From Promethearchaeia archaeon (lineage in GTDB: Archaea; Asgardarchaeota; Lokiarchaeia; Sigyniarchaeales; SOKP01), in the NCBI GenBank assembly GCA_046483985.1, contig JAWOCD010000085.1:1-64000 (forward strand): a DNA stretch of 64,000 nucleotides. The letters are read 5' to 3'. Position numbers and translations under genes: made by a program. Shown piece by piece: positions 13,364-59,293 of the stretch (positions are counted from its first letter, which is position 1; the number at the start of each line of letters is the position of its first letter). The notes below the pieces were generated by a model. The model ran no database searches. It worked only from the letters and a program-made list of their open reading frames with translations, and was not told the DNA's origin.

Positions 13364-13373
13364 TTCTTTTTGA

Positions 13374-39504: not shown

Positions 39505-40596
39505 ATGACAACCGGAATAATTTACGATGATATCTACCTTGAGCACCGCATCGGAACCCATGTGGAGAGCCACAAACGGCTTATCGGAATTATGGATTTA
39601 TTACGAAATAGAGGCTTATTAGATAATCCGGATTATCAAGTTATCAAACCGTATAAGGCAACCCTGGATCAAATCAAATATGTACACAATGTAGAATTAA
39701 TCAAAGAAGTAAAAGAAATTAGCAAATTAGCCGAGAAAACTGGGCATATCCAACAGCTTGATATGGACACCTCCGTTTCTGCAAAAACTTATGAAGCGTC
39801 CCTTTATTCTGTGGGAGGAAACTTGAAAGCTATCGATGAAATCCTCAATGGAAACATCAAAAACGGATTTGCTTTAGTAAGACCCCCCGGTCATCACACG
39901 AATGCGTATAAATGTTCTGGATTCTGTTTTTTTAATAACATAGCAATTGCAACGGAGTACTTATTAAGAGATAAAGATATTGATCGGGTCGCAATTATTG
40001 ATTGGGATTGTCACCACGGCAACGGCACTCAAGATATTTTTTATAAAGGCTCACCTTCGGGTGAAGGCGAGGTTGTCTTTTTTAGTTCTCATCAAGATGG
40101 GAGGACCCTGTATCCAGGAAGCGGGTTTGAAAATGAGATTGGAGAGGGAAACGGAAAGGGCCATATCATTAATTTTCCCATGCCACCTAACTCTGCCGAC
40201 GATGCGATTATGGAATTCTTTCATGAAATAGTATCACCTCTCTTAAACGAATATGCTCCCCAATTTATCTTGATCTCTGCAGGATTTGATACCCACTACA
40301 CAGATCGCCTCACAGGGATGGGTTGGACTTACCAAGCTCCGGCCAATTATCTCAAATTAATTAAAGCCATTGCACATGAATATGCAAACGATAGAATATT
40401 AATTACCTTAGAAGGGGGATATGATATAGATAAACAAGCACGGGCGGTATATAATTGCCTCAAGGTACTTAATGATGAGGAGGACTTAATCACGGAAAAG
40501 CCCAGAACGTCCGACTCCGAACTGTTGACATACTTAGATGGGAAATTGTTTCCGAAATTAAAGGAAAATCTGGCGCCATTTTGGGAATGCTTTTAA
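39505..40596 (+). CDS. Histone deacetylase/acetylpolyamine amidohydrolase family protein
   Basis: RPPGHH, GFCFFNN, DWDCHHGNGTQ, SAGFD, LEGGY. Confidence 0.92.
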   Translation: MTTGIIYDDIYLEHRIGTHVESHKRLIGIMDLLRNRGLLDNPDYQVIKPYKATLDQIKYVHNVELIKEVKEISKLAEKTGHIQQLDMDTSVSAKTYEASLYSVGGNLKAIDEILNGNIKNGFALVRPPGHHTNAYKCSGFCFFNNIAIATEYLLRDKDIDRVAIIDWDCHHGNGTQDIFYKGSPSGEGEVVFFSSHQDGRTLYPGSGFENEIGEGNGKGHIINFPMPPNSADDAIMEFFHEIVSPLLNEYAPQFILISAGFDTHYTDRLTGMGWTYQAPANYLKLIKAIAHEYANDRILITLEGGYDIDKQARAVYNCLKVLNDEEDLITEKPRTSDSELLTYLDGKLFPKLKENLAPFWECF

Positions 40597-40650
40597 CAAT
40601 TTGAATTTTTCTAAATTTTTTTCTTTTCCTTTTCTTTTTCCTTCAATTTA
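40597..40650 (+). terminator. Probable archaeal T-rich terminator after the HDAC gene
   Basis: Long T-tracts directly after the stop codon. Confidence 0.35.
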
Positions 40651-40808
40651 TGAGAAAAGAGTGATCTCCTCTATCGGTTGTTCTAAATTTCTTTCACGAA
40701 ATAAAAAATAATGAAAAATATTAAAAATCAAAACTATTTTAATCTTAATATTCAATATATTACTAGGAACTAATTTATTCTTAATAAAAAACACCAAGGT
40801 ATCTAAAT

Positions 40809-41906
40809 ATGTCGGACGAGAATGAAAAAAAAGAAGATAAAGATGATGATCTTGATTTAGATTTTGACTTACCGGATTTGGGCTTAGAAGATGAGGAGGA
40901 ACCATCAATGCCTCCACCGACCGAAGCTCCCCCCTCACCGGCACCGACAGAACCATCAGCACCGACAGAACCATCAGCACCGACAGAACCATCAACTATG
41001 AAAGCACCAGAACCCACCTCTTCATCCCCTTCCCCTGAATCCACACCCTCGCCCACACCAACTACCGAATCTATGTCCGCACCACCTTCGCCTACACCCT
41101 CAACCGAACCAGAATCAACTGCTCCCTCTCAAAATGAATTGGATAATATGCAACAACAAGTAAGCGCGAAGGACCAAAAGATAAATGAACTTCAAAACAA
41201 AATAAATGAATTGAACAACCAACTGAGTCAAGCAAGCGGAGAAACATCCAACCTTCAATCCCAATTGACCCAAAAGGAGAACCAGATCAACCAACTGAAT
41301 AATGAATTGCAAAATACAAAAAATTCGATGCAACAGTTACAATCGCAAGTTAATCAATTACAATCCGAAAAAGAACAACTCCAAGATCAAATTCCGAACT
41401 TGCAACAGCAAATACAACAGCTACAGCAAGAGAAAGCTAATTTGCAAGGTCAGATCCAACCTCTCCAACAAAAAATACAGCAATTGGAGCAAGATGTTGC
41501 GTATAAGGATAAACGTATCAAAGAATTGAAGGAACCAAAGGCAGTTATGGGCTCGTCTCTCTCTCAAGAACAACCAAGCTCTCCAGGAGCTTCTCAAAGC
41601 AGTAGTTCATTTGGAAGCTCCTCTTCCAGCGTAATGGGGGGCGGCGGACAAACAGGAACATCTGGCACTACTGGAGGCGGTACGGGAGGCGGTACGGGAG
41701 GCGGTACGGGAGGCACTACTGGAGGCGGTACGGAACAGACTCCCTCGGTGGACGTAGGAGGCACTCGAACAAAGTGTCCAAATTGTGGAGCAACCGGTCA
41801 AGCCATTAAGGAAGTTGAAGATAAAAGTAAAGTCATCAGCTATATCCCCAAACCAATTTATGCCAAGAAGTATGTGTGCACTAAGTGTGGATATGAATTC
41901 TCATAA
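40809..41906 (+). CDS. Low-complexity/coiled-coil protein with C-terminal zinc ribbon
   Basis: Acidic N-terminus, Pro/Ser/Thr linker, Gln-rich heptads, Gly/Thr linker, then CPNC...CTKC. Confidence 0.8.
   Translation: MSDENEKKEDKDDDLDLDFDLPDLGLEDEEEPSMPPPTEAPPSPAPTEPSAPTEPSAPTEPSTMKAPEPTSSSPSPESTPSPTPTTESMSAPPSPTPSTEPESTAPSQNELDNMQQQVSAKDQKINELQNKINELNNQLSQASGETSNLQSQLTQKENQINQLNNELQNTKNSMQQLQSQVNQLQSEKEQLQDQIPNLQQQIQQLQQEKANLQGQIQPLQQKIQQLEQDVAYKDKRIKELKEPKAVMGSSLSQEQPSSPGASQSSSSFGSSSSSVMGGGGQTGTSGTTGGGTGGGTGGGTGGTTGGGTEQTPSVDVGGTRTKCPNCGATGQAIKEVEDKSKVISYIPKPIYAKKYVCTKCGYEFS
40941..40994 (+). repeat. 18-bp tandem repeat x3 (APTEPS)
   Basis: gcaccgacagaaccatca three times exactly. Confidence 0.9.
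41673..41732 (+). repeat. 12-bp tandem repeat, about 5 units (GGGT)
   Basis: ggaggcggtacg x3, ggaggcactact, ggaggcggtacg. Confidence 0.9.
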
Positions 41907-41950
41907 AAACCTAGTTGCTCTATTAATTGAGGAAAAATAATATACTCTAA

Positions 41951-42003
41951 TTTCCCACTAAAGTGCGAGAAAGTCCTGTCCTTTAGGCGGGGATGAAGTG
42001 CGA
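41951..42003 (+). mobile_element. Solitary IS200/IS605-like end hairpin (no transposase nearby)
   Basis: GC-rich island in an AT-rich spacer: AAAG followed by the imperfect hairpin TCCTGTCC-TTTA-GGCGGGGA; aagtgcga occurs on both sides. Confidence 0.5.
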
Positions 42004-42172
42004 TAGGAAAATTTAATTAAATTTCTCTTTTTTTCTTATTTCACTATATTTGATGCTTTTAAGTAAACATAAAAATATTCCTAAAATTATATATATTATA
42101 ATTTTATTTAATATTCTAAATTGGTTTACCTTAAATATTCCATTATCTTTATTTTGGTTTCGTTAGAGTAAA

Positions 42173-45100
42173 ATGTCGTTAGAGAGAGAACTCTTAGAGC
42201 CGCAAATTAACAAAAAACGTGCTGCTGCCGTTTTTTTAATTGCTATCCTCTTAATCGCTTTTTTTTCACTCTCTACTGTATTATTCAACTTTTTATTGGG
42301 TTCACAACGTATAAATCCCAATGAAAAGCTTGATGATGCGGATTTTGAGGATGTTACCTTAAATATGCCCGACATTCCCTTTGATCTGGAAGATCTTATT
42401 GATGCGTTGGATCCGGAAGATTTGGAAGATTTAGACCTAACTGAAGAGGATATCGATGAACTCTTCCAAGAAATGTACGATGGCGATATCGATAATATGG
42501 ACTTAAGCACGATGGGAGCAGCAATGGCAGCTCTCCTCGGGTCCGATGAGGAGGTATTTCGAATTTTTGATTACGACAATTTTGACAATTTGTCCGATAA
42601 GCTCTGGCGCTATGAATGTTTTGAAGAGTATAACGGAACCAGCTGGAAATCTTCGGCAAGTAAACAAATATTCGATTTTTATTCGTATGGGGATTTAGAG
42701 GGAAGCGAAGACATTTTGAGGTTAAAGAGGGCCATGAATCCCTCATCAGATCAGAACTCATTTGTGGCTCCCGCTCTTTTTCCGAATCCTAATATTATGG
42801 AAGGGAGCGTGAGCGGAGATACCTTGGATGAGAGTTCTGCAACACTTTACAAGGATGATTATAATTGCACCACCATGGATGCAACCTTTACCAGCGATCA
42901 AGAAACCAATATGTCGTATGAATTATTTGGAACGCCCCAACCCAGCCCCGAAGATTTAAATTCGAGCCAAGTTGACGAGTCCTTTACTCCATCCGCAATT
43001 AGAGACCTCTATTTACAACTCCCGCCCTCAATCTCCACTTACAGGGCCAATCATGATGACTTTGACAGGCATTGCGACAACTTAGAGGTCATCATTAAGG
43101 AAGACGATGGGGCATATACAGTCGCAAATAAGATACGGAACTATTTGCAAGCGAATTTTACCGATCCCTACAGTGGAGGAGCAGAGATTTATACGGATGA
43201 TGGCCCCGCAGAAGGAGAGGATGAAATAGAATGGTTCTGTGAAAAGGAGGGGGGGTTATGGTCTCATTTCGCTTCAGCTTTTACTGCATTTACCCGGGTA
43301 TTCGGTGTTTCTAGCAGATATGTTAACGGATTTAATAGTCGGGCCCTCGATGAGGTCTCTGACCCTCAAGAAGGAGAAGATGCGGCGGTGGTCCGATATA
43401 AAAATTTGTATAATTGGGCAGAAATCTATGTTCCTACAGATACCTCTGGAAATGGACGTTGGGTGGAGATGGATATTAATTTCGAGACCTTTGGAAGTGG
43501 AGGAATGACCGCGCCAGAAGGGGAATATAATATTACGCTTACTTCTAATGTTACTGGACCGATAAATCGTGGAAATATTGCAGAACTGAATGCCTCACTG
43601 AGTTCAGATACGGGAGATGTAGAGGATAAGGAAATAAAGTTCTATGATCATAATAATCCTGAGACACCATTAGGTTCTGCAATTACTAATGCCAATGGAA
43701 ATGCCACTCTACTCGTTGATATTAATGATACACAAGTTGTGGGCCCTCATAATATTTATGCTACTTATTACACCTCCTATTCAAATCCGATAACTTATTT
43801 AATTAACGATGATATTGTCGTTCATTTATCCAGGGTTAATCCGCAAGAAGTTAATAGATCGGATTCTAATCCCGATGAGACAACTATTAAAGGTAATGTC
43901 TATGATCCTGCAAATAATGAAGGGGTGCGGGATGCTGATATTGAATATGTATTGTTAGAAAAAGGAACCAATAACAAATATAATAGTGCATTTACTCCAA
44001 ATTGCTCACAAACAAATAGCACGGGAGATTTTGAAGATACTATTTCTGTTAATGCCCCACCAGCAGCACCTTATGGAACATTTGATATAAGAGTTGATTT
44101 TAATGGAACGTGGAATGATGGTCTTTATGTATCTGAGCTCATGGAAAATTCCAGTAATCGCATCGAGTTTAATCATACGAGTACTCATAGTGTTAACTTT
44201 TACATAAACAACACTGATTCAACCAATTATGAAAATCCCACGGTAAATAGAACCGATTCGTTACATTTAAAAGCGAAAGTCGTTGCTTCCGATGGTTCGA
44301 CAATTCCAGATAAGGATGTGCAATTTATTAATGCCGATAACAATTCTACACTTTTCACAAATACTACAAATGCTGATGGACTTGCCACCTATACCTTTGA
44401 TTTAAATTCCTCTGTTTTGGCGGGTCCAAACTTACTCTGTGCTCAAGTGGGATATGTCACCAATTATTCCTATTTTGTTTTGGAAGAGAAACCAACCATT
44501 CATATAAATTCTGGACCAACTCCCAGAGAGATAAATAGAACAGGTTCAGGAATTAAAGAATTTTCTATTCCTGGCAGCATTAATGATACTAATGGCAATC
44601 CAATTCCATATGCCGAAATTGGATTGAGGATATTTAGAAATTCAACAGATTTCTCCGAGTATTTAAGTCCCCCTGATCCTCCCAAGGTTAATTCTGACGG
44701 AAAATTTAATTTTACCTACGGAGTTTCTGAAAATATTCCATACGGAAATTATACATTACGGATGGACTTTAACGGCACAGTGGATCGGTCAGACGATTCA
44801 GATTATCCTCATTATTTTGAATTGTCCGAGATGGATAACTCAACCATTCTTACAGATGAGTTAAAGGTTGAGGCACCTGATGAGTTCACAATGGATTTTT
44901 TCATTGATGGATACAGCAATGATGATTTTTATTCGCCTAATATTACCCGAAATGATGAAGTAAACTTATCGGTTGAAATCCAATGGGGTATGGATCTTGC
45001 AAAGGACGGAGATATCGTTACCTTCAGGGACCATACTCAAGATCTCGTTATCGCCGAGAAAGAACTTAGTAACGGTCAAGCGAGTGTTAGTTATGAAATG

Positions 45101-46642
45101 AATGATACTATTGTGGCAGGACCCCACCTTATTTCCGCAAGCTATGATAGAGCTGGAGCTGGAGAAAAAAATCATTCTTATTTCATTTTGGATGCTCCTA
45201 TTGATATTGACCTGGATTTTGTCCCGCAAACAATTAATAGTACCGGGAACATCGGTAGGAATTTTGTTGTTCGCGGTTCTTTGAAAGATCCTTCAAACAG
45301 TAAATCTGTTAAATATGGGCAAATTTCAGTCCATATGCTTGATGGTAATGACGACGTTTCTTTCTATCTCAATCAAGAAGCGGGGGATTTGGCTCTAAAT
45401 GAGACAGGGGAGATTTATGCCGAATTTAGCGTTAGCGAGAGTACACCTCCAAAAAATTATACAATAGAGACTCGTTTTAACGGCACCTTTTTGTACACCA
45501 ATTCTGAAGAAGATTACCAATATGATTATTTCTTGCCCGAATGGAGCAATTTCTCGGCGGCGAACGAAAGTGAAAATGAACTAGAAGTAATTAACCCTGA
45601 AGAATTATCTATTACATTTAAAATCGGAGGAGAACATACAAGACCAACCTATGATAATAGTAATCCACCTGCAACATATCAAAAAGGAGAGAATGCCACC
45701 TTTGAGGTCTGGGTCAATCATACGACAACGGATGAAGGAACTGTCCGGCTTATGGACAATTACACCGGAACTGAATTGGATTCTGCCGAAGTTAATATAA
45801 CTGAGGGGGGATATCATGAATTTAGTATAAATACCACCGATTTGCACGCTGGATTACATAGAATAATTGTTACTTATGAGGATTTCAACACGATTAATGA
45901 TACATATATAGTAATAAACGAGAGTGTAGATATCTCCAGTGAACTAAGTGTGGAAAAAGTAAGGAGAAATCAAAATGGATTTTCGGTAGAGGGAAATGTC
46001 ACCGATGAGGGTGAACCCTTAAGAGCCTTAAATCTTAGCATTAATTTCTATGATTCCTCAATGCAAGATGCTTCGGATTATTTCAATTTAGAAGGATCTT
46101 CGTCCATAATAGTTCAAGAAGATGGGACATATTGTTTTAATATCAGCTACGTGGATCTGGAGGCTCCTCAAGGGCAGTATTATGTGCAGATTAATTTCAC
46201 GGGCGATATAATTGAATTACCGGATGTTCATCTCACCGATTATATGGTCCATAGCAACAGTAGTTGTATGACCTTGAATGTAACGGCGGGTACTACTATT
46301 ACCGAAGGAGATTCTTATACTTTAAATGAAAAAGAAGAAAAATGGTATAATGATGATATTCTATACGTTACCGGTAATTTAACGTGGGATAACGGAAGCG
46401 CAATGGAAGGGTATAATGTGAATGTGACCATAGAGGATGAAAACGGAAACGTTATAGCATTCAATGATACGGTGACCGTCGATTCCAGCGGCTTTTTCAA
46501 CGGCTCGCTTACTGTTGACTCGAATTGGCCAACCTATCAAGAAGATACAAGTATTAAGGTCGAGTTTAATCCCTTTGATGAGCATAATTTTGACATGACA
46601 GATGGTTATTATGTTGAAGGTTCTAGTCAAGAATATACTTAA
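42173..46642 (+). CDS. Giant membrane-anchored surface protein: transglutaminase-like domain (catalytic residues substituted) plus tandem Ig-like repeats
   Basis: N-terminal TM; transglutaminase core GLWSHFASAF...GVSSRYVNGF...NWAEIY...WVEMD; about four ~230-aa beta-rich repeats; acidic and rich in N-X-S/T sequons. Confidence 0.8.
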   Translation: MSLERELLEPQINKKRAAAVFLIAILLIAFFSLSTVLFNFLLGSQRINPNEKLDDADFEDVTLNMPDIPFDLEDLIDALDPEDLEDLDLTEEDIDELFQEMYDGDIDNMDLSTMGAAMAALLGSDEEVFRIFDYDNFDNLSDKLWRYECFEEYNGTSWKSSASKQIFDFYSYGDLEGSEDILRLKRAMNPSSDQNSFVAPALFPNPNIMEGSVSGDTLDESSATLYKDDYNCTTMDATFTSDQETNMSYELFGTPQPSPEDLNSSQVDESFTPSAIRDLYLQLPPSISTYRANHDDFDRHCDNLEVIIKEDDGAYTVANKIRNYLQANFTDPYSGGAEIYTDDGPAEGEDEIEWFCEKEGGLWSHFASAFTAFTRVFGVSSRYVNGFNSRALDEVSDPQEGEDAAVVRYKNLYNWAEIYVPTDTSGNGRWVEMDINFETFGSGGMTAPEGEYNITLTSNVTGPINRGNIAELNASLSSDTGDVEDKEIKFYDHNNPETPLGSAITNANGNATLLVDINDTQVVGPHNIYATYYTSYSNPITYLINDDIVVHLSRVNPQEVNRSDSNPDETTIKGNVYDPANNEGVRDADIEYVLLEKGTNNKYNSAFTPNCSQTNSTGDFEDTISVNAPPAAPYGTFDIRVDFNGTWNDGLYVSELMENSSNRIEFNHTSTHSVNFYINNTDSTNYENPTVNRTDSLHLKAKVVASDGSTIPDKDVQFINADNNSTLFTNTTNADGLATYTFDLNSSVLAGPNLLCAQVGYVTNYSYFVLEEKPTIHINSGPTPREINRTGSGIKEFSIPGSINDTNGNPIPYAEIGLRIFRNSTDFSEYLSPPDPPKVNSDGKFNFTYGVSENIPYGNYTLRMDFNGTVDRSDDSDYPHYFELSEMDNSTILTDELKVEAPDEFTMDFFIDGYSNDDFYSPNITRNDEVNLSVEIQWGMDLAKDGDIVTFRDHTQDLVIAEKELSNGQASVSYEMNDTIVAGPHLISASYDRAGAGEKNHSYFILDAPIDIDLDFVPQTINSTGNIGRNFVVRGSLKDPSNSKSVKYGQISVHMLDGNDDVSFYLNQEAGDLALNETGEIYAEFSVSESTPPKNYTIETRFNGTFLYTNSEEDYQYDYFLPEWSNFSAANESENELEVINPEELSITFKIGGEHTRPTYDNSNPPATYQKGENATFEVWVNHTTTDEGTVRLMDNYTGTELDSAEVNITEGGYHEFSINTTDLHAGLHRIIVTYEDFNTINDTYIVINESVDISSELSVEKVRRNQNGFSVEGNVTDEGEPLRALNLSINFYDSSMQDASDYFNLEGSSSIIVQEDGTYCFNISYVDLEAPQGQYYVQINFTGDIIELPDVHLTDYMVHSNSSCMTLNVTAGTTITEGDSYTLNEKEEKWYNDDILYVTGNLTWDNGSAMEGYNVNVTIEDENGNVIAFNDTVTVDSSGFFNGSLTVDSNWPTYQEDTSIKVEFNPFDEHNFDMTDGYYVEGSSQEYT

Positions 46643-46666
46643 TATAATCAAGAAGGTCAAATGTAA

Positions 46667-48298
46667 ATGGTGGGATTGAAAAGAAAAAAGAGCAGAAATA
46701 AACCCCGCATAAAAATATTAATTATCCTTTCCCTTTTCATTTTGATAATCTTTTTAAGGGGAAGGGACAATTTACCAGATATCAGCGATTATTCAAGTAT
46801 GCAAGATATCAAAGATAGGGACCGTTCTCAAGATTTGAAGCTTTCTTCTATTGAAGCTAATTTAACTTTAACAAATGCGGAAATGATTAATAATTCAAGG
46901 TTTTCTCATTATCAAAACATTCCAATCAATGGAAATCTTATTCATGCTATATCTGGTGATCCATATCCGAATTATAGTGTTTCTGTTAAAGTTAATGGTG
47001 AATTATTTCCTCGCTATAATGCCACAACAGACGAGGACGGTAATTTTACCATCAATTATAATATCTCAGATTCACTTAATATTTATACTTCTCATAAAAT
47101 CGAGGCCGAAGTTCTTAATGATACGGAAAGTGATATAGATTATCTCAATCATTATATTATCTTTTTAAATACGACTTCTGAATTTGATATAGATGAGGGT
47201 GATTGGTCAGATACCGATATTCCTTATCTGACCGGAGAGCCTTTTAACACAAACGGATATTTAAGATATGTTAATGGGACGGGAATTGCAGGGGGGATAG
47301 TAAATTTTTATTGGTATCATGATGGAGAAGTGCTTGATTCTGGAACGACATCAACTAATAATAATGGGGAGATAAATTCCTTGCCAATCCCAGAAACTGA
47401 ATTGGAAGAACTATCATTAAAATTAAACTTCTCCGATTTCCCTTATGTGAATTATTCGGAATGGATTCTTCCAGAAACAATTGAAGTTTTTTCCAATATT
47501 TCGTGTCAGTGGGATGTAGAAAGCACCTCTACGGAATTTGAGGATTTTACCATTCAAGGTACCCTTGTATCGTCAGCCAATAGTAGCTTTTTTATTAATG
47601 ATCGCCAGATTGCACTTTTATATAATGGAGAACTGGTTGGCCAGGTGAGCACTAATAGTGATGGTTCGTTTTCCTATACATATAATATCCCTGAAGGAAC
47701 GGGAGCCAATAATTTACAAATAAGATTGATTAATGATGCGGGAAAAATTGAAACGTCTAATAGTTACACTATTGAGGTGTATGAAGGAGAAGAGGAAGCA
47801 GTCGTTCCACCCGACGATACAGAAGATGATACGCCAGCCCCGTTTGTAAACTTTTTTATTTATTTTATTCCGATTGTAGCGGGGATTATTGTAGCCTTAA
47901 CACTACTGGGGTATAAATACCTACGACAACAAGAGGAGGCTTCAAGAACGGTCAAAGTACCTTTGGGAGACAAATTACTTAATTTAAAAATGCTGAAAGA
48001 GTCAGGAAGATTAGAAGAAGCATTATCTTATCTTTTTAATGCGATATATATGGATTTAATTAACGCAAAATTTGGTCGCAGCAAAAAAGCGTCTGAGACC
48101 ATCAGGGATATTGCGATTGTGTCGGTAAAAGATCTAAAACTTCCGCCGGAAAAAATATATCCCTTCATCACGAAGATCGAAGAAGTTATTTATGCTCGGC
48201 CACATAAAATAACCGAAGAGGATTTTAAAAAGGCGCTTGCGCTATTTTCACCGGTCTACTATGAATTGACGAGTCAAAAATTTAATTTAAAAATTTAA
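46667..48298 (+). CDS. Membrane protein: N-terminal TM, extracellular Ig-like domains, C-terminal TM and cytoplasmic DUF4129-like domain
   Basis: TTDEDGNF and STNSDGSF beta motifs; TM FFIYFIPIVAGIIVALTLLGY; ETIRD...IEEVIYA tail. Confidence 0.7.
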   Translation: MVGLKRKKSRNKPRIKILIILSLFILIIFLRGRDNLPDISDYSSMQDIKDRDRSQDLKLSSIEANLTLTNAEMINNSRFSHYQNIPINGNLIHAISGDPYPNYSVSVKVNGELFPRYNATTDEDGNFTINYNISDSLNIYTSHKIEAEVLNDTESDIDYLNHYIIFLNTTSEFDIDEGDWSDTDIPYLTGEPFNTNGYLRYVNGTGIAGGIVNFYWYHDGEVLDSGTTSTNNNGEINSLPIPETELEELSLKLNFSDFPYVNYSEWILPETIEVFSNISCQWDVESTSTEFEDFTIQGTLVSSANSSFFINDRQIALLYNGELVGQVSTNSDGSFSYTYNIPEGTGANNLQIRLINDAGKIETSNSYTIEVYEGEEEAVVPPDDTEDDTPAPFVNFFIYFIPIVAGIIVALTLLGYKYLRQQEEASRTVKVPLGDKLLNLKMLKESGRLEEALSYLFNAIYMDLINAKFGRSKKASETIRDIAIVSVKDLKLPPEKIYPFITKIEEVIYARPHKITEEDFKKALALFSPVYYELTSQKFNLKI

Positions 48299-48402
48299 CC
48301 GTTTCACCAGACAAGTTATAAAAAAAATGTGTGAATTAAAAAATCAAAATTTAAATCAAAAAACCATTATAAATTATATATATTGAAAATAAAACATCTT
48401 AG

Positions 48403-48783
48403 GTGGGAAAAATAGGATTATTCTCAAAAGAGGAACAAAAAAAGTTTGATATCGAGGATAAATTCGAGAATGTTCAAATTTTAGTCGATAGCGACAGATC
48501 GAAGGAGGCGATCGCATATATTTATTTAATTTACAATGATCTCATGAAACATGAATACGATAAACCACGACTTGCCCATCAAACTATTCGGGAATATGCG
48601 ATAAAATGTGTTAATGACCTAGATCAAAATCCTGGCTCCGTATATACTTTTATTAAAAAGATTGAAGATATTATTTATGGGGGCGTTGAGCCAACCATTC
48701 CAGAAATAAATAAGACGATAAATCTCTTTTCGTCCTTATACCAAGAAATCACCAATAAGAGTTTCTCTTATAATATTAAATAA
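48403..48783 (+). CDS. Stand-alone DUF4129-like protein
   Basis: QTIREYA...IEDIIYG; clear paralog of the C-terminal domain of the preceding gene. Confidence 0.7.
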   Translation: MGKIGLFSKEEQKKFDIEDKFENVQILVDSDRSKEAIAYIYLIYNDLMKHEYDKPRLAHQTIREYAIKCVNDLDQNPGSVYTFIKKIEDIIYGGVEPTIPEINKTINLFSSLYQEITNKSFSYNIK

Positions 48784-48846
48784 TCTTTTCATTATAATTA
48801 AAAAAGAAATTATAAAATTTAATCAAAACTGACTTTTGAGTGAACG

Positions 48847-50595
48847 ATGGCTATATTTAGTGGAAAACCTTCAGAAAAGAGTATTAATATTTCAAAGGGT
48901 ATATTATATGGGTTCTTTACCTTTTTTCTTGTCTTTTACGGGGTTATTCTTACCGTTTTCATTCAAGAGTTTGGAAGACAACATCCGGGAATTTTTCCCT
49001 ATTTTGTGAACTATTTCCCGCTTGTATGCTATATCGCCGCTATTTTCATGGGTCTCCGCTTTTTAATTTTTATTCGAAACAAAAGGACCAGGAAGGTCAG
49101 AGAAAAGCGTTCTCGAAAAAAACTCAAAAAGGGGTCTGTCTATCGAAAGGCGTTATTTTTAATTATTTTTATCTTTTCCTTTGTACCTCTCTTATCTCCG
49201 GTAATTGATCAAGGCAAGAACGACCATAATTTTTCTGCTTATAACGAGGGTTGGAACGGCGGTTCAGATTTTAAAGCCTTGGTAGAAGATGAGGGATATG
49301 AGACCTATAATGTTCAATCGAGTCTGAGTGCCACTCAACGTCTCAATAAATCAATGCTGTTAGTCTTATTTGGTCCCAATCAATTTTATAATCCAATCTA
49401 TGAGATTCCGTTTTTTATAAATTTTTTCGAAAATAATAATTCGCTCTTGCTCTTACACGATTTCGGGTCCACTAGTGCGCTGTTGTGGGAAATTTTTGCC
49501 GCAAACTTGGCAGATCCGAACGTAAAAGATAAAACTCCTGTAACTATCTTTCCAGATGGGGTTCTACGAGACAATGAATCATGTTTAGTGAACGAGGAAG
49601 GAAAAAAAGATCCCCAATTCCCGGTCGTAACGAACTTTCAATCGCATCCTACAACTGAGGGGGTGAATAATGTTCTTCTTGCTCGAGCATCCGCTGCCTT
49701 GGGGGGACCTTTTCTTGAGTACTTCGGCTGGAATCCGATTGCTTATACCAGCATGTATAGTTTTATTGATAAAAATGAAGATGGAGTATATAACATAGAA
49801 GACGATAATATTGATCTAAGTTTCATTGATAATGTGATAGGGGAAGACTTTCCATTAGATCTGAGTAAATTCCCTCTGGGGGGGTATCCGCAAACTCCGT
49901 TTATGAGTAAACAAGCGGATAACGTAAGACTTTTTGTCTCGGGGGATGCGAGTCTTTTCAATAATGATCTTTTGAACCGAGAAGAATTTGACAATGCACG
50001 GTTTGCTCGGAATATAATAAATTGGTTAACCTATGAAAATGGAGAGGATTGGATAGTTGTATTTGATGAAGCACATATTAGGCCTGAATATTCCCGAGAT
50101 TTGAGTTCTGCCGGCATTTTTGGGTTTATTATTCAATATGTGGTGCATTTATCTACTAATCCGATTACGGCATGGATTTATCCGCTGCTGGCCATTTATC
50201 TTTTACGAAAGTATCTTCCTAAAAAAAAGGAGAAGGAAAGGGAAGAAAAGGAGAAACAAGAAGAAGAGAAGAGAAAATTTAGGACATCCTCCTTTTTTGC
50301 ACGTAAAATTAAATGGTATCGTTCAAACCAAAAATTCGATAAAGCTCTCTTGCTTTTATACAGGCGTTTAGAGCGAAAACTTAATGCCCAATTGGGAGGG
50401 AAAAATATCACCACTGAAAATGTGATTAACATGGTTTCTGCAAAGGTTCCAAATATATCAAAACAGAAGTTGAAACGAATTGGTAAATTTATGAATAAAA
50501 TATTAGCAATAAAGAAAAACGAACTGGATGTTCAAGACCAGAAGGATTTTGAGAATTTATTCTTCGAAATGGAATGGGTTATGGAAAACATCTAA
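48847..50595 (+). CDS. DUF4350-like (GIFT/GldG-related) membrane protein
   Basis: Three N-terminal TMs; FSAYNEGWNGGSDF; LHDFG; SGDASLFNN...DNARFARNIINWL; VFDEAH; C-terminal TM and helical tail. Confidence 0.7.
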   Translation: MAIFSGKPSEKSINISKGILYGFFTFFLVFYGVILTVFIQEFGRQHPGIFPYFVNYFPLVCYIAAIFMGLRFLIFIRNKRTRKVREKRSRKKLKKGSVYRKALFLIIFIFSFVPLLSPVIDQGKNDHNFSAYNEGWNGGSDFKALVEDEGYETYNVQSSLSATQRLNKSMLLVLFGPNQFYNPIYEIPFFINFFENNNSLLLLHDFGSTSALLWEIFAANLADPNVKDKTPVTIFPDGVLRDNESCLVNEEGKKDPQFPVVTNFQSHPTTEGVNNVLLARASAALGGPFLEYFGWNPIAYTSMYSFIDKNEDGVYNIEDDNIDLSFIDNVIGEDFPLDLSKFPLGGYPQTPFMSKQADNVRLFVSGDASLFNNDLLNREEFDNARFARNIINWLTYENGEDWIVVFDEAHIRPEYSRDLSSAGIFGFIIQYVVHLSTNPITAWIYPLLAIYLLRKYLPKKKEKEREEKEKQEEEKRKFRTSSFFARKIKWYRSNQKFDKALLLLYRRLERKLNAQLGGKNITTENVINMVSAKVPNISKQKLKRIGKFMNKILAIKKNELDVQDQKDFENLFFEMEWVMENI

Positions 50596-50754
50596 GGTTT
50601 TCTAAAATTTCTTTTTCTTTTTTATTTTTACTTCTAAAAGTATAAACTAATCTCTCTTTTTTTTTAGCCACATAGATTTATAACGCAAAATTACCAAATA
50701 GACCAAGTTGATTGATTATGAACAATATCAAAAATGGGAGGAATAAAAAAATAT

Positions 50755-51732
50755 TTAAATCGGAACAGGAATTTCCTCTAAGATACTATTAATTACTCCC
50801 TTAACATCTAAACCCTCTAATTCCGCTTCGGGTTTTAGTAAAATACGATGATTTAAGGCGGGGATTGTTAAGGCTCGTACATCATCAGGGGTTACATAAT
50901 TCCTGCCAAGAATCGCTGCGCGCGCTTTTGAACATTTCATTAACACAAGCGATGCTCTTGGGCCTGCTCCCATATAAATCTGCGGATGATTTCGAGTCTT
51001 TAATGAGATGTCCCGGATATATTTAAGAATTCGTTGGTCAATATAGACTAAATTCATAAGATCTTGAGCTGCCAACAGCTCTTCAGCATCAGTTACTGGT
51101 TCAATTGAAGGTAAATGACCGCTGAGTTGCCTTGACATGATTTCAACCTCTTCATCTTGTTCTGGATAGTCTAACCAAAGCTTGAAAAGAAATCGGTCAA
51201 CTTGTGCTTCGGGGAGGGGGTATGTCCCTTCCATTTCCACGGGGTTCTCAGTTGCTACCACTAGAAAAGGTTTTTCTAGTTCTAATGTTTTCCCTTCAAT
51301 GGTTACTTGTCGTTCTGCCATCGCTTCGAGAAGTGCAGCTTGCGTTTTAGGGGCGCTCCGATTAATTTCATCCGCTAAGACTAAATTAGCAAACACTGGC
51401 CCCTTTTGAAGAACAAAACCTCCCTCATTTTGATCAAAGATTTTTGTACCAGTAATATCGGCCGGTAAGAGATCGGGGGTAAATTGAATTCTGGAAAATG
51501 AGATTCCAAGCGTTTTAGCAAAAGTTTTTGCCATCACCGTTTTACCGAGTCCAGGGACTCCTTCCAGTAACACATGACCATTAACTAAAAGGGCAATAAA
51601 TAATTGCTGCAAGATTTCCCCATTTCCAACAATAACTCGGCTAACTTCACTTAAAACTTCTTGAGCAATTTCACGAATCGGTGAAACATCTAATTCCTCT
51701 TGTTGTTCATAATATTGGGCTTTTTCAGCCAT
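50755..51732 (-). CDS. moxR: MoxR AAA+ ATPase (MoxR proper type)
   Basis: GHVLLEGVPGLGKT, RIQFTPDLLPADITG, LADEINRSAPKTQAALLEAMAERQVT, NPVEMEGTYPLPEAQVDRF. Confidence 0.95.
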   Translation of the reverse strand: MAEKAQYYEQQEELDVSPIREIAQEVLSEVSRVIVGNGEILQQLFIALLVNGHVLLEGVPGLGKTVMAKTFAKTLGISFSRIQFTPDLLPADITGTKIFDQNEGGFVLQKGPVFANLVLADEINRSAPKTQAALLEAMAERQVTIEGKTLELEKPFLVVATENPVEMEGTYPLPEAQVDRFLFKLWLDYPEQDEEVEIMSRQLSGHLPSIEPVTDAEELLAAQDLMNLVYIDQRILKYIRDISLKTRNHPQIYMGAGPRASLVLMKCSKARAAILGRNYVTPDDVRALTIPALNHRILLKPEAELEGLDVKGVINSILEEIPVPI

Positions 51733-51997
51733 TGAGAATTCACTTCTTTAAATCTTTACTTATCAATAAAAGATATTGATTTAATTTATATAATTATAAG
51801 ATAAATCAATTTTATATTTTTATTTTTTCGCGTTCGATTTCTTCAACAATCTATGCGCAATTCATAAAAAGTAAAAATATATAATTTATAATTATTATTA
51901 TAATTAAAAATAGAATTTCTCACAGTGAGAATAAAAAATATAAACCCATTTTTTTTAGGAACGGTGAAGTGATATTTTAGGTGGAAAAGGGCGCTTA

Positions 51998-53302
51998 TTG
52001 GTCATGTTTTCCATATTCTTTTTATGTGCGGGATTTGCATTTATCAATTATTTTTTGATCTTCTTTGCCATTTTATTATTATTCAGTACTATTATCAGTT
52101 TGCCCGTGTTTTATTATCAAACAAACATTGAAGAACTCAAAGTCCATCGCGAGCTTGAAAAGAAAAAGATTTTTAAAGACGATTTCGTCCATATTAAAGT
52201 AACCATAGAGAATATAGGAAATAGCAGTTTCGATTTTATAGAAATTCGTGATCAATTTAATCCAGAATTGTTTCGCCTTGTTTTGGGAGAAAATTTCATA
52301 TCAACCCGAATTGGAAGAAAGAGCACGATAAAATTTTCTTATGTGCTTGAACCGAAAGTGAGAGGAGAATATCCTTTAGGTCCACTCTCTGTAACGGTAA
52401 AAGATCGTTTGGGGTTTAACTCACTTGAGAGAGTTGTACCAGATAGTGTGACGGATATTTTGATTTATCCTCCTTATGAAGATATAAAACGGATTGAAAT
52501 TCTTGGATCAAAACGGTCATTGCAACTGAACTATGGAGCACAACGCTCCAAGCAGAAAGGTCTCGGAAGCGAGTTTTACGGAATGCGGAAATATGTTTTT
52601 GGTGATCAATTTCGCCTAATCGACTGGAAAGCATCTGTACGGACACAAAAACTAATTGTCAAAGAATTTGAATCAGAAAGAGATATCACCTGTATGATTT
52701 TGGTGGATTCTTCAAACAGTATGGCAGGTGGGGCAATAGATAATACTAAATTCGAATATGCCATACGTGCATGTATGTTATTAACAAAGGTGGCATTAAC
52801 AAGAAGAGACCAAGTGGGCGTATTTACCTTTTCAAATAATAAAAATATGAATCTTTCTGAGCCGAAGGGAGGAGAAGACCAGTTCTATCAAGTTTTAGAT
52901 GCAATTGCCAAGGTAAAACCAGAAGGACAGTGTAAATTTAGAGAATCTATGGACTATTTCACAAAACGCCACCAAAAACGGAGTTTAATTTTTATTATCT
53001 CTGATCTAGAACCAGATGTAAAAGACATCGTGGAGGGAGTCCGAAAACTTATTCCCTTTGACCATACCATAATAATGATTAATCCGTTTAGCCCATGGTT
53101 TGAGATTCATGAGACGGATTTATCTTCCACGGATAAAGCCCTTGCAGAGGCGATCTCCGAGGAGATGATGGAACATGTATTACATATAAAACAAGAGGTA
53201 CGAAATTTGGGAGTCAGTTTAATTCATGTAGGGCCAGACGATATGATGCAAAATACATTAACCAAGTATTTAGAGGCAAAAAAAAAGGGGAGGGCCTTCT
53301 GA
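51998..53302 (+). CDS. DUF58-domain protein (N-terminal TMs, Ig-like domain, VWA-like C-terminus)
   Basis: RGEYPLGP, GSEFYGMRKYVFGDQFRLIDWKAS, VKEFESE, VDSSNSM, IISD motifs. Confidence 0.9.
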   Translation: MVMFSIFFLCAGFAFINYFLIFFAILLLFSTIISLPVFYYQTNIEELKVHRELEKKKIFKDDFVHIKVTIENIGNSSFDFIEIRDQFNPELFRLVLGENFISTRIGRKSTIKFSYVLEPKVRGEYPLGPLSVTVKDRLGFNSLERVVPDSVTDILIYPPYEDIKRIEILGSKRSLQLNYGAQRSKQKGLGSEFYGMRKYVFGDQFRLIDWKASVRTQKLIVKEFESERDITCMILVDSSNSMAGGAIDNTKFEYAIRACMLLTKVALTRRDQVGVFTFSNNKNMNLSEPKGGEDQFYQVLDAIAKVKPEGQCKFRESMDYFTKRHQKRSLIFIISDLEPDVKDIVEGVRKLIPFDHTIIMINPFSPWFEIHETDLSSTDKALAEAISEEMMEHVLHIKQEVRNLGVSLIHVGPDDMMQNTLTKYLEAKKKGRAF

Positions 53303-53304
53303 TT

Positions 53305-54759
53305 ATGGCGAGATATTATTTAACCGTCTTGAATATTATAAACGCCTTAATTTTTATTTGGATTATTGTTCTTTTTAATTCTATTTTCAATTTCGATCTA
53401 GTCATCACCACCGCTGAAAACGAGTTAGTATTTTGGGATGTACTCATCGCCTTGCGAAATATTCTTACATATGGGGCATATTTATTTCTCTATATTGTGG
53501 CATATTTTACTGCGCTAATTGTAAGCGGAGTATTTAGCTCTTTTGCTTATTTTGAGACCAATTTTATGTTTAATTTTATCGGTTTCTTCTTTAAATTTTA
53601 TTTAGAATCGTGGTTTAATTTTCCAGGGGGAGAAACTCCCTCATTGATCAGGATTCCCGCATTAATGGCACAAGAAGCATCGGTATTTACTAATAATTTA
53701 TATTTGCTAATCTTCCAGATTTTATTTGTAATATCTGTATTCTATGCGATTCGCGCCATTTTTAAAAACGACGTGAAATATAATTTTATAGCAATTGGAA
53801 GTTTAGTTCTCATGATTGTTATGCCTTTAATGATTTTTGGATTTCGGGATATGTTACGCTTATTTACCTTAAAGGTTCCTTTTCTTGAAAATCTGGAAAA
53901 TCCAGTAGATCCAAGCCTCACTGAATTACCGCTTAATGATTTCTTTGGATTTATATTTAGTTCGATTTTCTTATTTGCCATAATCAGCTATATTTATTTG
54001 GAAATGGCTTTTCAGATTAGTTATATTGATACAGTCACCAAACCCAGTCTTGAGAGAGAAGACCGATTAGAGGCTCAAATTGATCTTCTACGCAAAGAAT
54101 CTGCTCATATTACAGCTAATGTTGATAAAATACGGGAGGAAGCACAACAAAGAAAAGAAGAGCTTGGCATTGAAAAAAAAGAATCTGTAAGAGAATTTTT
54201 TACCCAGAAAGAAGAAAGGTTTTCCTATGTAAAAGAGATGGTACGGCGTAAAAAATTGGAGGAAGAAGAGAAAAAATTGGTGACCGCAGCTTCCAAAACT
54301 CGCAGATTAGGTAGATATATTGATCGATTATTCCGTGAAGATCCGGAAGCTGAAGATGCCATCACAGCAAAGTCATCAGCGCCCACTCCCAAGAGTCTTG
54401 CATCGTCTACTGGTCTCAATTTTGCATTTCGATTAATTCTATTAATCTTTCTCAGTTATATTATTATTCATCCTCATTGGTTTTTTAAGGAAGTATTTAA
54501 TTTACCACCCTCTATTATTGAAAGTGTTTCAATGTATTCTCCCGAGGTTATCATTACTTTAATGATACCATTTGTTCTTTTATTTCCGGTAATTTCAAAG
54601 GTAATTTCCTATATTAAACATCGTAATCTAATCATTCGTTTGAAACAAGAAGGAAGAATCAAAGAGATTTTGGCTTCAGTCGGAGACTATGTAAAAAAAA
54701 TGGAGGAAGGAGAAGAAATAGCTCAAGAAGAAGATCTAGAGGAAGAAAGCGAAGAATAA
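53305..54759 (+). CDS. Polytopic membrane protein with cytoplasmic coiled coil
   Basis: About 8 hydrophobic segments flanking a charged coiled-coil loop; starts 2 bp after the DUF58 stop. Confidence 0.65.
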   Translation: MARYYLTVLNIINALIFIWIIVLFNSIFNFDLVITTAENELVFWDVLIALRNILTYGAYLFLYIVAYFTALIVSGVFSSFAYFETNFMFNFIGFFFKFYLESWFNFPGGETPSLIRIPALMAQEASVFTNNLYLLIFQILFVISVFYAIRAIFKNDVKYNFIAIGSLVLMIVMPLMIFGFRDMLRLFTLKVPFLENLENPVDPSLTELPLNDFFGFIFSSIFLFAIISYIYLEMAFQISYIDTVTKPSLEREDRLEAQIDLLRKESAHITANVDKIREEAQQRKEELGIEKKESVREFFTQKEERFSYVKEMVRRKKLEEEEKKLVTAASKTRRLGRYIDRLFREDPEAEDAITAKSSAPTPKSLASSTGLNFAFRLILLIFLSYIIIHPHWFFKEVFNLPPSIIESVSMYSPEVIITLMIPFVLLFPVISKVISYIKHRNLIIRLKQEGRIKEILASVGDYVKKMEEGEEIAQEEDLEEESEE

Positions 54760-54792
54760 TCCATAATTTCTTAACGTCTTAATTTGATGTCG

Positions 54793-55731
54793 CTATAAAT
54801 CTAAAATAAATTGCGCTAATTTTTTCTTTTTTTCCATATTAGTCATTAAGGTATCATAGCATGAGACTTTCATTCCTTTCTCTTTGATATTCGATTTTTG
54901 TTCGCGATCCTTTTCATCGATTACGAAGTGCCCTACAATATCGGCATAGTATTTTGCAACCCCCCCACAAGTTGCATCGTAACCCATCGCTTTCATCAAT
55001 TTATCGGCGGGTCCCTTTATTGTCCCCCCTTGTATAATCGGACTAACGGCATAGACTTTATTTTTAAATTCCCTTAGTTTATACCTTACTTCGCCAACCT
55101 GCAGTATGGTTCCTATTGATACAATAGGGTTCGACGGAGAGATTATAATCTTCGTTGCATTTTCCAAATATCTCATTACTTTCTCTTCTGGTTTAGCGTC
55201 GTTCATGCCCTTAAATTCCACATTAAGGATTTCGGGTTTACATTTATATTTAATATAATACTCCTCGAAATGCATCTTTCCTTTGGGAGTATCGATAAAC
55301 GTCTGAACGTTTTCATTACACATAGGGATAAGTTCGGCTGAGATATTTAATTTCTTACAAATTTTCTTAGTTACCTCTGCCTTGGTAAATCCTTTTTGTA
55401 ACATATCTGTTCGATATATATGCGTTGCTAAGTCTTTATCGCCGAGATTGAACCATCCTAAGTCATAATACTTCTTTAAGATTGAGAGACAATTAAAAGA
55501 TTCGCCTTGAAACCCCCATCCTTTATCTTTATCTACAAGGTTTGCTAAAGTATAAGTAATGATATCCAAATCAGGACATATTTTCAATCCAAATAACTCA
55601 ATATCATCTCCTGTATTAATAATGATTTTGAGTTTTTTAGGATCACAGACATGCCGCAATCCATCAAGAAATTTTGCCGCTCCGACTCCGCCTGCTAAGA
55701 TTACATAAAATTTATCTTCCATAAAATTCAT
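54793..55731 (-). CDS. cofD: 2-phospho-L-lactate/PEP transferase
   Basis: LAGGVGAAKFL, NTGDD, ICPDLD, WFNLGDKDLATH, HFEEY, PSNPIVSIG, KGPADKLM. Confidence 0.93.
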   Translation of the reverse strand: MNFMEDKFYVILAGGVGAAKFLDGLRHVCDPKKLKIIINTGDDIELFGLKICPDLDIITYTLANLVDKDKGWGFQGESFNCLSILKKYYDLGWFNLGDKDLATHIYRTDMLQKGFTKAEVTKKICKKLNISAELIPMCNENVQTFIDTPKGKMHFEEYYIKYKCKPEILNVEFKGMNDAKPEEKVMRYLENATKIIISPSNPIVSIGTILQVGEVRYKLREFKNKVYAVSPIIQGGTIKGPADKLMKAMGYDATCGGVAKYYADIVGHFVIDEKDREQKSNIKEKGMKVSCYDTLMTNMEKKKKLAQFILDL

Positions 55732-57146
55732 TTCTCGTTATTTAATTTATAAATAATTTCATTTAGATCCTTGCGATAAGGGGGTTTAATTTGTTTACGA
55801 GGACGTCCCACAGTGATAAAAGCCATGGGCTGAAAACTGGGAGGCAGATCTAAAAACTTTTTGACAATTTCCTTAGCAAATAAAGGAGCACAATACCAAC
55901 AAGATGCAAGACCCCTTGATTGGAGAGCAATCAGAAAATAAATTGCTGATGCGCTAACAGATTGTACTCCTAATAAAAATTCGTTCTCATTTCGTTTCTC
56001 ATCGGGATATGTTTCGAGGTCTCTTTCATCTAAAGAGAGTAAGATTAAATAAGGTGCAGCCAAAAAACGTGCCCGGGTTTTTTCAATTTTTTTAGAGATG
56101 AACTTCTCCTCCCTTCCGTCTGCTCTAAGATCCTTCCTTAGTTTCTCATTCATTCGATTTATTAATTGTTCCCGTAGTTTGCTCTTTTTTTTTAAGATGC
56201 TGTATCTCCAGAATTGGCCATTATGAGCGCTGGGAGCCCAACGAGCGATTTCTATACATTCCTCTATTAGGGCTTTATCCACTTCTTTTTGAGAAAAGGG
56301 TAATTTATAGCTCCTTCTTCTTTTTAATACCTTTTCGACTATGTCTTCTTGATTTTCTGGTCTAAAAAGATCTGATGATTTATCTCTGAGGATTGAGTTA
56401 ATAGATACATCTTCATCATACTTATATCTATATCCTCTAACGAGTACAACGGGATTTCCTTGGTCTCCTTCTCCCATGATTAACTGAGCTGCAGAGGCTA
56501 AATTATCCGCTTGCGCCACAATTGTACTCTTCAACTTATTTCCGTATAAATCTTTCTTTCCCCTCTCATCCTTTAGTGGACTAATCCCAGATATCCCTAT
56601 TGCGACTCCAACAGAACCAACTCGAAAGGGTCTTCCAAAAGAATCGGTAATAATCACGGAAATAGACTTATGAGTTTTTTGTTCTAATTTTTTTCGGATT
56701 TTATTTGCAATTTGATCAGAATTTGAGGGTAGGATAGTAACGAAGTCCTTCCCTTCAATATTTGATGCATCGATTCCTGCATTTGCACAGATAAACCCTT
56801 GCTCTGTCTCTGTTATAATTACATGTTCATATTTTAATACGTTTTTGCTTTCTTGTAAAATAAGTTCAATTAATTGGGGAGATTTAATTGGAAGGTCCCT
56901 TTTTTGCGCTTTTTCTTTTACTTTCTTATAGATTTTAAGAGCTTGCTGACTTGGATCTACTTTACTTAAATCTCGAGTATAATTCTCCGCTTTAGAAATA
57001 ATAGATTGGGCAATTAATAAAATATCTCCATCTTCTAAATTTCCATTCATTCCCTCTAAACTTTTTAAAATATGAGATACGATATTATTTCCGGATTTGA
57101 CCAATGGAAAGTTTTCCAATCCAATTAATTTAATTTTATTCTTCAT
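55728..57146 (-). CDS. cofE: F420-0:gamma-glutamyl ligase fused to a C-terminal nitroreductase domain (FbiB-like)
   Basis: ICANAGIDASN, DSFGRPFRVG, DERGKKDLYG, MGEGDQGNP; then RRRS, APSAHNGQFW and GLASCWYCAP nitroreductase motifs. Confidence 0.92.
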   Translation of the reverse strand: MKNKIKLIGLENFPLVKSGNNIVSHILKSLEGMNGNLEDGDILLIAQSIISKAENYTRDLSKVDPSQQALKIYKKVKEKAQKRDLPIKSPQLIELILQESKNVLKYEHVIITETEQGFICANAGIDASNIEGKDFVTILPSNSDQIANKIRKKLEQKTHKSISVIITDSFGRPFRVGSVGVAIGISGISPLKDERGKKDLYGNKLKSTIVAQADNLASAAQLIMGEGDQGNPVVLVRGYRYKYDEDVSINSILRDKSSDLFRPENQEDIVEKVLKRRRSYKLPFSQKEVDKALIEECIEIARWAPSAHNGQFWRYSILKKKSKLREQLINRMNEKLRKDLRADGREEKFISKKIEKTRARFLAAPYLILLSLDERDLETYPDEKRNENEFLLGVQSVSASAIYFLIALQSRGLASCWYCAPLFAKEIVKKFLDLPPSFQPMAFITVGRPRKQIKPPYRKDLNEIIYKLNNEK

Positions 57147-57158
57147 TTTGCTCTAATT

Positions 57159-57416: not shown

Positions 57417-57441
57417 GGTAATTTTACTCCTTCTTTTTATA

Positions 57442-59272: not shown

Positions 59273-59293
59273 ACAATCACGCAGTATTTCTTT

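Follow-up and report, generated by a model that had tools for sequence, protein, structure and literature searches.

Introduction

[quoted passage not shown] Operons joining MoxR, vWA and transglutaminase components are widespread and have gone unexplained for more than a decade, and the question is raised once more by seven genes (g1 to g7; Table 1) of a Promethearchaeia archaeon from the Asgard phylum (Promethearchaeota), found within the first 64,000 nucleotides of contig JAWOCD010000085.1 (assembly GCA_046483985.1; this whole stretch is referred to as the window). The genes encode a giant surface protein with a transglutaminase-like (TGL) domain and Ig-like modules (g1), two proteins with DUF4129-like domains (g2 and g3), a DUF4350-type membrane protein (g4), MoxR (g5), a DUF58 protein with a vWA domain (g6) and a polytopic membrane protein (g7). 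Most likely, the products of the cluster, among them an ATP-driven chaperone inside the cell, assemble or control a large protein complex at the cell surface; in its more specific form, the reading favored here, to which we would give a probability of about one half, is that of a single transmembrane envelope complex, dating back to the ancestor of the phylum and present in nearly all of its members, in which a MoxR/vWA chaperone acts on cytoplasmic tails. The module is a lineage-specific version of one already predicted in other archaea and bacteria; what is new is its near-universality in the phylum, the g7 family, which turned up here in no other phylum, the loss of the TGL nucleophile in most lineages, and the gene split and MoxR inversion in the window's lineage.

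Conservation of the module across the phylum

Forty-five loci from approximately 25 families of the phylum were compared, with their open reading frames scored using a profile of each module gene, and the order DUF4350-MoxR-DUF58-g7 was found to be kept in nearly all of them, g7 being directly adjacent to g6 in 43 (with gaps from -53 to +69 nt) and a transglutaminase/Ig/DUF4129 gene lying upstream of the four wherever the DNA of the locus extends far enough. Of 201 genomes drawn from across the phylum, 171 were matched by a profile built from 19 g7 homologs (alignment A1), as were 83 of the 86 high-quality ones, usually with a single match per genome; among 60 relatives and the genome of the window itself (G000), g7 was matched in 58 of the 61, mostly once in each. 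This is not background gene order, since the genes flanking the module (a Ras-like GTPase, a histone deacetylase homolog and a coiled-coil protein upstream, CofD/CofE downstream) retain their synteny with it only inside the window's own family.

The initial annotation of this locus, made from the sequence alone, had treated the seven genes as one unit, and such they are, co-conserved in related genomes far above background synteny, with the protein encoded from position 53305 (g7) linked to DUF58 well beyond the genome in which it was noticed; neither of the two genomic outcomes that had been named beforehand as refuting the unit was obtained. Its contiguous genes and their domains are likewise where it had put them, although the cluster does not share one direction, as MoxR lies on the minus strand, which had gone unmentioned. 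To call the module “expanded” in this genome, however, gives a wrong impression: the core was already present in the ancestor of the phylum, the window's family has merely split one gene (g1/g2), and the extra g3, a free short DUF4129 gene, is common to many lineages, the window's family among them. The commonest arrangement elsewhere in the phylum, and probably the ancestral one, comprises five genes, namely a fused TGL-fold/Ig/transmembrane/DUF4129 (TgpA-like) gene, DUF4350, MoxR, DUF58 and g7. Identity among orthologs falls from MoxR to DUF58, then to g3, g4 and g7, then to g2 and finally to g1 (84 down to 36% within the family), and its being lowest in g2 and g1 is what would be expected if these two proteins were exposed.

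The split surface protein and its dead transglutaminase fold

The product of g1, which has one N-terminal transmembrane (TM) segment, no C-terminal anchor and a strongly acidic composition (17.5% D+E vs. 5.3% K+R), matches Transglut_core (PF01841) over aa 315-434 with 40.5 bits (cut-off 23), a match at the level of the fold, as the Cys-His-Asp triad that would mark an active member is incomplete, with only the Asp retained (Table 1). Across the phylum, the position of the nucleophile is occupied by W, Y, F, M, S, P, D, G and others, so that most lineages lack the Cys, which survives in two families, f13 (L047 and L065, together with His and Asp, and L048, where Tyr stands in place of the His) and f24 (L054, with His and Asp). 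The f13 proteins carry two TGL domains, with the Cys in the first only. Judging by this distribution, the domain was probably active in an ancestor and then inactivated, perhaps repeatedly, and, with both Cys and His absent, the window's copy can, as far as its residues tell, only be a binding or structural module and not an enzyme. The suggestion in the initial annotation that this is a pseudo-transglutaminase that does not cross-link proteins agrees with these replacements, which make cross-linking unlikely in this lineage.

The remainder of g1 gives Ig-like matches (Big_3_5, MG2, bMG3 and CarboxypepD_reg), modules which are visible to profiles only, as self-comparison by blastp revealed no internal repeats at E < 1e-3. 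No match to TgpA_N (PF11992) was found in g1, which has its single TM segment in place of the multi-TM TgpA_N/DUF3488 region; a class-level homolog (L040) shows a weak TgpA_N match of 24 bits, below the cut-off.

The neighboring g2 also has Ig-like matches, lying between TM segments at approximately aa 14-32 and 396-414, and its last 114 aa share 37% identity with g3 (E 2e-19). A single protein of 1170-2290 aa, running through TM, TGL, Ig, TM and DUF4129 in what is a TgpA-like architecture, is encoded at 16 of the 45 loci, and the g2 profile matches the C-terminal half of such fused orthologs with E-values of up to 1e-90; g1 and g2 are thus halves of one ancestral protein, separated in the window's family and a few others.

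The ATPase and its presumed vWA partner

Both parts of the presumed chaperone keep their signature motifs. The MoxR protein g5 matches AAA_3 with 216.8 bits (cut-off 27) and AAA_lid_2 with 77.5 bits, and has intact Walker A (GVPGLGKT, aa 58) and Walker B (LVLADE, aa 117) motifs; no other protein of the genome gives a strong AAA_3 match (219 bits for MoxR vs. 77 for the next), and the bpMoxR model gives only a secondary match. The product of g6 matches DUF58 (PF01882, 111 bits) and VWA_2 (42 bits), is encoded by the only DUF58 gene in the genome, and carries the DxSxS motif of a metal ion-dependent adhesion site (MIDAS) as DSSNS at aa 237-241, the pattern D-x-[S/G]-x-[S/T] being kept in 21 homologs.

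MoxR is inverted relative to its neighbors in the window's genome and in one other (G009, locus L021), which belongs to a different genus of the same family, while the other loci are co-directional; as the inversion is common to both genomes, it is real and recent. A perfect 12-nt inverted pair, TATGGAAAACAT at 50580-50591 (the end of g4) and ATGTTTTCCATA at 52004-52015 (the start of g6), brackets the inverted segment and may be due to chance, and the search for other inversion signatures around MoxR returned nothing beyond AT-rich low-complexity pairs.

The polytopic neighbor of DUF58

The product of the gene that begins 2 bp past the DUF58 stop belongs to no known family or fold. Neither the window's g7 protein nor ten distant homologs match anything in Pfam or NCBIfam, and the AlphaFold2 model (predicted local distance difference test score, pLDDT, 78), which has a long helical hairpin (approximately aa 220-345) in addition to its 7-8 membrane helices, finds nothing in the PDB at E <= 0.001 with Foldseek (E >= 1.1) and only generic helical bundles with VIA-align (Z <= 8.4). 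The most conserved residues (Y240, P247, R251, Q258, E311, A355 and P360) lie in or after the hairpin. Among 1.84 billion representative proteins, the g7 profile matches 137 clusters, the nearest Atlas clusters being from Promethearchaeota; no fused forms were found among longer proteins, which is a weak test.

Two candidate readings were set aside. g7 does not resemble SpoIIM, with no PF01944 match and an hhalign probability of 0.2% against a single Rhizobium SpoIIM sequence, and its acidic C-terminal tail is not a general MIDAS ligand, being conserved in the window's family only. In family f25, for which the g7 profile is silent, locus L070 (G119:C1) has a 400-aa polytopic protein (12378-13580) after DUF58, which aligns to the hairpin region of g7 with an hhalign probability of 49.5%, so the g7 family may be wider than HMMER detects; the large protein upstream in that locus has Ig-like domains and no detectable TGL or DUF4129.

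The DUF4129 copies and the DUF4350/GIFT-type protein

No direct match to DUF4129 (PF13559) was obtained for g3 or for the C-terminus of g2, and the membership of both rests on orthology, since 10 of 16 g3 orthologs do match (best E 1.2e-10). The AlphaFold2 model of g3 is a five-helix bundle (pLDDT 91.9), the structural neighbors of which are mostly HEPN-fold proteins (Z 7-9.3 over approximately 100 residues), with no conserved Rx4-6H motif; a HEPN-like fold for DUF4129 is possible from this model, as a lead for further work.

The membrane protein g4 consists of three TM segments, a DUF4350/GIFT-type domain, a further TM segment and a conserved basic tail (aa 454-582, predicted to be cytoplasmic). 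Its own score against DUF4350 (PF14258) is 30.3 bits, just under the cut-off of 30.4, over profile positions 2-180 of 181, and all 36 orthologs of alignment A3 match the family (best 74.9 bits, 1.3e-20); ABC_transp_aux/GldG-like matches are given by 24 of the 36, IFT52_GIFT matches by six and an OST48_N match, below the cut-off, by one. GIFT domains have been proposed to be sugar binders (PMC7226087). The idea that the cytoplasmic tail of g4 might be a third DUF4129 domain was discarded (hhalign probability 0.2-0.6%), and tblastn gave no match for g4 in plasmids. Taken as a list of parts, the operon unites relatives of dynein/midasin-type AAA+ ATPases, of inactive ciliary TGL domains and of the GIFT domains of IFT52 and OST48.

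Predicted membrane topology and proposed mechanism

Topology, physical contacts, direction of action and biological role are what we infer for this complex. K/R-rich stretches follow the TM segments of g2, g4 and g6, and the predicted outside parts contain 9.4-10.7% Asn, the g2 tail, MoxR, DUF58 and g7 containing 3.2-4.1% with 0-2 N-X-S/T sequons each. The number of sequons in g1 is 59 vs. 22 +/- 4.2 in shuffles, and in g2 it is 13 vs. 6.5 +/- 2.2, with all 13 falling in the predicted outside part; g4 is not enriched (4 vs. 3.0 +/- 1.6). On the grounds of the K/R-rich segments and of Asn and sequon composition, the TGL and Ig-like parts of g1, the Ig-like part of g2 and the DUF4350 domain of g4 would be outside. 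On the inside would be the DUF4129 domains, the tail of g4, the vWA domain of the membrane-anchored DUF58 protein, MoxR and the hairpin of g7. The cytoplasmic MoxR/vWA motor and extracellular TGL/Ig protein initially envisaged are compatible with this predicted arrangement.

Such an arrangement would make g1 an Asn- and sequon-rich stalk outside the cell, its TGL-fold domain serving as a binding module in this lineage, accompanied on the outside by the GldG/IFT52/OST48-like GIFT-type domain of g4. DUF58 might then act as a MIDAS adaptor docking a MoxR hexamer onto cytoplasmic tails, most probably those of DUF4129 and/or the g7 hairpin, and MoxR would hydrolyse ATP to assemble the surface complex, switch its conformation or turn it over; the role of MoxR and DUF58 would be one of a chaperone or of maturation, as with other MoxR-vWA pairs.

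Several observations weigh against the envelope complex as outlined above. Two families represented by near-complete genomes (f18 and f21) yielded neither g7 nor orthologous DUF4350 or DUF58 genes, meaning that the module is dispensable for some members of the phylum; MoxR is transcribed separately in the window, and its co-expression with the rest is not guaranteed in this genome; and the retention of Cys in two families means that a catalytic role of the TGL domain may be the ancestral one. The topology, furthermore, consists entirely of what hydropathy, the positive-inside rule and composition indicate, little N-glycosylation was seen by glycoproteomics in a cultured relative (PMC11284389; the module proteins were not looked up there), and the Ig+vWA protein of comparable archaeal operons was predicted by Makarova et al. 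to be secreted, not cytoplasmic (PMC5898192).

A much bolder picture can be drawn, in which the operon builds the “complex surface proteins” seen by cryo-electron tomography on the bodies and protrusions of Lokiarchaea, the trio of MoxR, inactive TGL and GIFT is a prokaryotic forerunner of dynein/midasin with inactive ciliary TGL proteins (CC2D2A) and GIFT proteins (IFT52, OST48), and the phylum-restricted g7 is a new membrane coupling subunit; we hold it to be highly unlikely.

Related systems and rival explanations

An envelope machine of MoxR, vWA, DUF4350 and an Ig-domain protein, such as the initial annotation envisaged, had already been proposed for other archaea by Makarova, Galperin and Koonin in 2015, who described operons in which a COG0714 ATPase and an Ig+vWA protein accompany DUF4350 (arCOG01314) and suggested a novel secretion or membrane-remodelling complex (PMC5898192). 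A DUF4350/GldG-like membrane-anchored protein, a beta-sandwich+vWA protein (DUF58) and a COG0714 MoxR are found together in both, alongside Ig-domain surface proteins and small polytopic membrane proteins, and the function is uncharacterised. That description, however, which predates Asgard genomes, lists no transglutaminase/DUF4129 (TgpA-like) component; its operon partners are S-layer-like pfam07760 proteins and proteins of 2-5 TM segments, the 5-TM arCOG07126 and arCOG11232 proteins among them; and its vWA protein is predicted to be secreted, whereas composition and charge suggest a cytoplasmic vWA domain in the Asgard module. With the common MoxR-vWA-TGL (YebA/TgpA) operon of Zhang and Aravind (2012), for which membrane-proximal proteolysis was proposed (PMC3495828), and with TgpA of P. 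aeruginosa (PMC3507681; PDB 6g49), the module shares MoxR, DUF58/vWA and a membrane-linked TGL-fold protein with a DUF4129 domain at its C-terminus after a TM segment, although this protein is divided between g1 and g2 in the window and single in only 16 of the 45 loci. TgpA has a multi-TM TgpA_N region and an active Cys-His-Asp triad, in contrast to the single TM anchor, long Ig-like repeats and dead site (W363, Y413) of g1, and the Asgard module, unlike the TgpA operon, adds DUF4350 and g7.

A bacterial example of the same order of genes is found on Rhizobium ruizarguesonis plasmid CP140870 (L066), DUF4129-DUF4350-MoxR-DUF58-SpoIIM-RDD, with a polytopic protein following DUF58 just as in the window; its DUF4129 protein, however, has 251 aa and neither a TGL nor an Ig ectodomain, and DUF58 is followed there by SpoIIM and then RDD, whereas in the window it is followed by g7 and then CofD. 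Haloarchaeal plasmids have a cluster of DUF4129, a long DUF58, a small protein and MoxR, which, in Haloferax mediterranei pHME322 (L068; DUF4129-DUF58-small protein-MoxR), adjoins a gene of the baseplate J/gp47 family near halocin H4. In the library that was searched, no paper uniting Asgard archaea with MoxR was found, except for one unrelated review.

Three rival readings of the Asgard module were weighed. The actinomycete Esr system (Actinomycetales; bioRxiv 10.64898/2026.09.08.750141) and the bifidobacterial PFNA cluster (PMC8430577) resemble it in encoding MoxR, vWA/DUF58, a transglutaminase and a repeat-rich surface protein together, and Esr unites these, with an Ig-repeat surface filament, for the sensing of threats, which would make the module an outside-in sensor: the pseudo-TGL/Ig stalk and the GIFT domain would bind an external ligand (a partner cell or a glycan), the signal would pass to DUF4129, and MoxR-vWA would transduce it, as in Esr and other MoxR-vWA conflict systems. 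Peptide binding, which was proposed for other inactive TGL domains (PMC3495828), would be in line with this, and a fast-evolving ectodomain would suit ligand diversification. Yet the Ser/Thr kinase, phosphatase and FHA outputs and the beta-propeller or FN3 sensor of Esr/PFNA, in which the transglutaminase is proposed to help anchor the surface filament, are missing from the Asgard module; no conserved kinase, phosphatase, FHA, beta-propeller, effector or transcription-factor gene was found in it in the window and the 45 loci, no PADLOC defence model was matched beyond weak P-loop matches of the ATPase, and a nearly universal, syntenic distribution with mostly single matches looks like housekeeping and not like the patchy, variable one of conflict systems. 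A sensor is, all in all, doubtful.

Export is what the proposal of Makarova et al. would imply, with g7 as a conduit and g1 as a substrate or surface adhesin, and, besides having been put forward for DUF4350-vWA-MoxR neighborhoods of other archaea (PMC5898192), it could draw on the tie of DUF4350/GldG to gliding and type IX machinery, on the strict coupling of the polytopic g7 to the ATPase adaptor and on the missing C-terminal anchor of g1. In its fused form, though, which is the most frequent one elsewhere in the phylum, the surface protein has a membrane anchor at either end and requires no more than ordinary insertion, and g7 resembles no transporter or channel fold in the structure searches described above. 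MoxR ATPases, moreover, are known as chaperones and not as translocases, and a secretion apparatus seems improbable here. As for ATP-dependent proteolysis next to the membrane, with vWA recruiting, MoxR unfolding and the TGL-like domain cleaving, it has a published model behind it (PMC3495828) and intact Cys-His-Asp triads in f13 and f24 to point to; at this locus, it is disfavored by the missing Cys and His, the nucleophile being replaced in most of the phylum as well, and a TGL domain predicted outside the membrane would be on the wrong side of a cytoplasmic MoxR, all of which renders it very improbable. The single envelope complex served by a MoxR/vWA chaperone is, for these reasons, the reading retained here.

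Layout and surroundings of the locus

Table 1. Genes of the module and features within them (positions refer to the window).
Feature	Position	Strand	Extent	Description
g1	42173..46642	+	1489 aa	N-anchored acidic sequon-rich surface protein, inactive transglutaminase-fold domain and Ig-like repeats
Transglutaminase-like core of g1	43115..43474	+	aa 315-434	
Catalytic Cys replaced in g1	43259-43261	+	Trp363	Alignment to P. aeruginosa TgpA (PDB 6g49)
Catalytic His replaced in g1	43409-43411	+	Tyr413	Family-wide and phylum-wide alignments
Catalytic Asp kept in g1	43472-43474	+	Asp434	Family-wide and phylum-wide alignments
g2	46667..48298	+	543 aa	N-terminal TM, Ig-like region, second TM, DUF4129 domain
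DUF4129 domain of g2	47954-48295	+	aa 430-543	
g3	48403..48783	+	126 aa	Free DUF4129 paralog, predicted cytoplasmic, five-helix bundle
g4	48847..50595	+	582 aa	DUF4350/GIFT-type membrane protein
DUF4350/GIFT-type domain of g4	49240-50016	+	aa 132-390	Predicted extracellular
g5	50755..51732	-	325 aa	MoxR-proper AAA+ ATPase, locally inverted
g6	51998..53302	+	434 aa	DUF58: N-terminal hydrophobic hairpin, beta-sandwich, vWA domain with intact MIDAS
g7	53305..54759	+	484 aa	7-8-TM protein with conserved helical hairpin
Helical hairpin of g7	53998-54384	+	aa 232-360	Conserved, predicted cytoplasmic

Upstream of the module, at 38756-41906, the window holds a Ras-family small GTPase (minus strand), a class-II-type histone deacetylase homolog and a 365-aa coiled-coil protein, and downstream of it (54793-60298) a minus-strand run of CofD, a CofE-nitroreductase fusion, an 85-aa 4HBT thioesterase fragment, two radical-SAM proteins and an LplA/B-type lipoate ligase, which is convergent with g7 and ends 33 bp from its stop. 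No Rfam families were detected in 41500-55200, and a promoter/terminator scan, the sigma-70 model of which is inapplicable to archaea, gave counts equal to those of shuffles. Four order-level relatives (L030, L032, L033 and L034) have g4 orthologs of 832-847 aa, approximately 250 aa longer than those of the window's family, and, in two of them (L030 and L034), 4-7 kb of other genes lie between MoxR and the DUF58-g7 pair, which is itself intact.

Significance

Cultured Asgard relatives have been reported to be without an ordered S-layer (PMC9834061; PMC11284389), and their bodies and protrusions bear “complex surface proteins” that are unexplained (PMC9834061). The Asgard surface is believed to bring about the cell-cell contacts that matter for eukaryogenesis, and the module, as the sole DUF58/MoxR-proper system in the genome, with a predicted exposed protein of roughly 1500 aa and an ATP-driven partner, is a testable candidate for building or regulating part of that surface. 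The f13 and f24 relatives that have kept the Cys provide natural sets for comparing active and inactive TGL domains, and g7 could serve the study of how MoxR-vWA chaperones are coupled to membranes.

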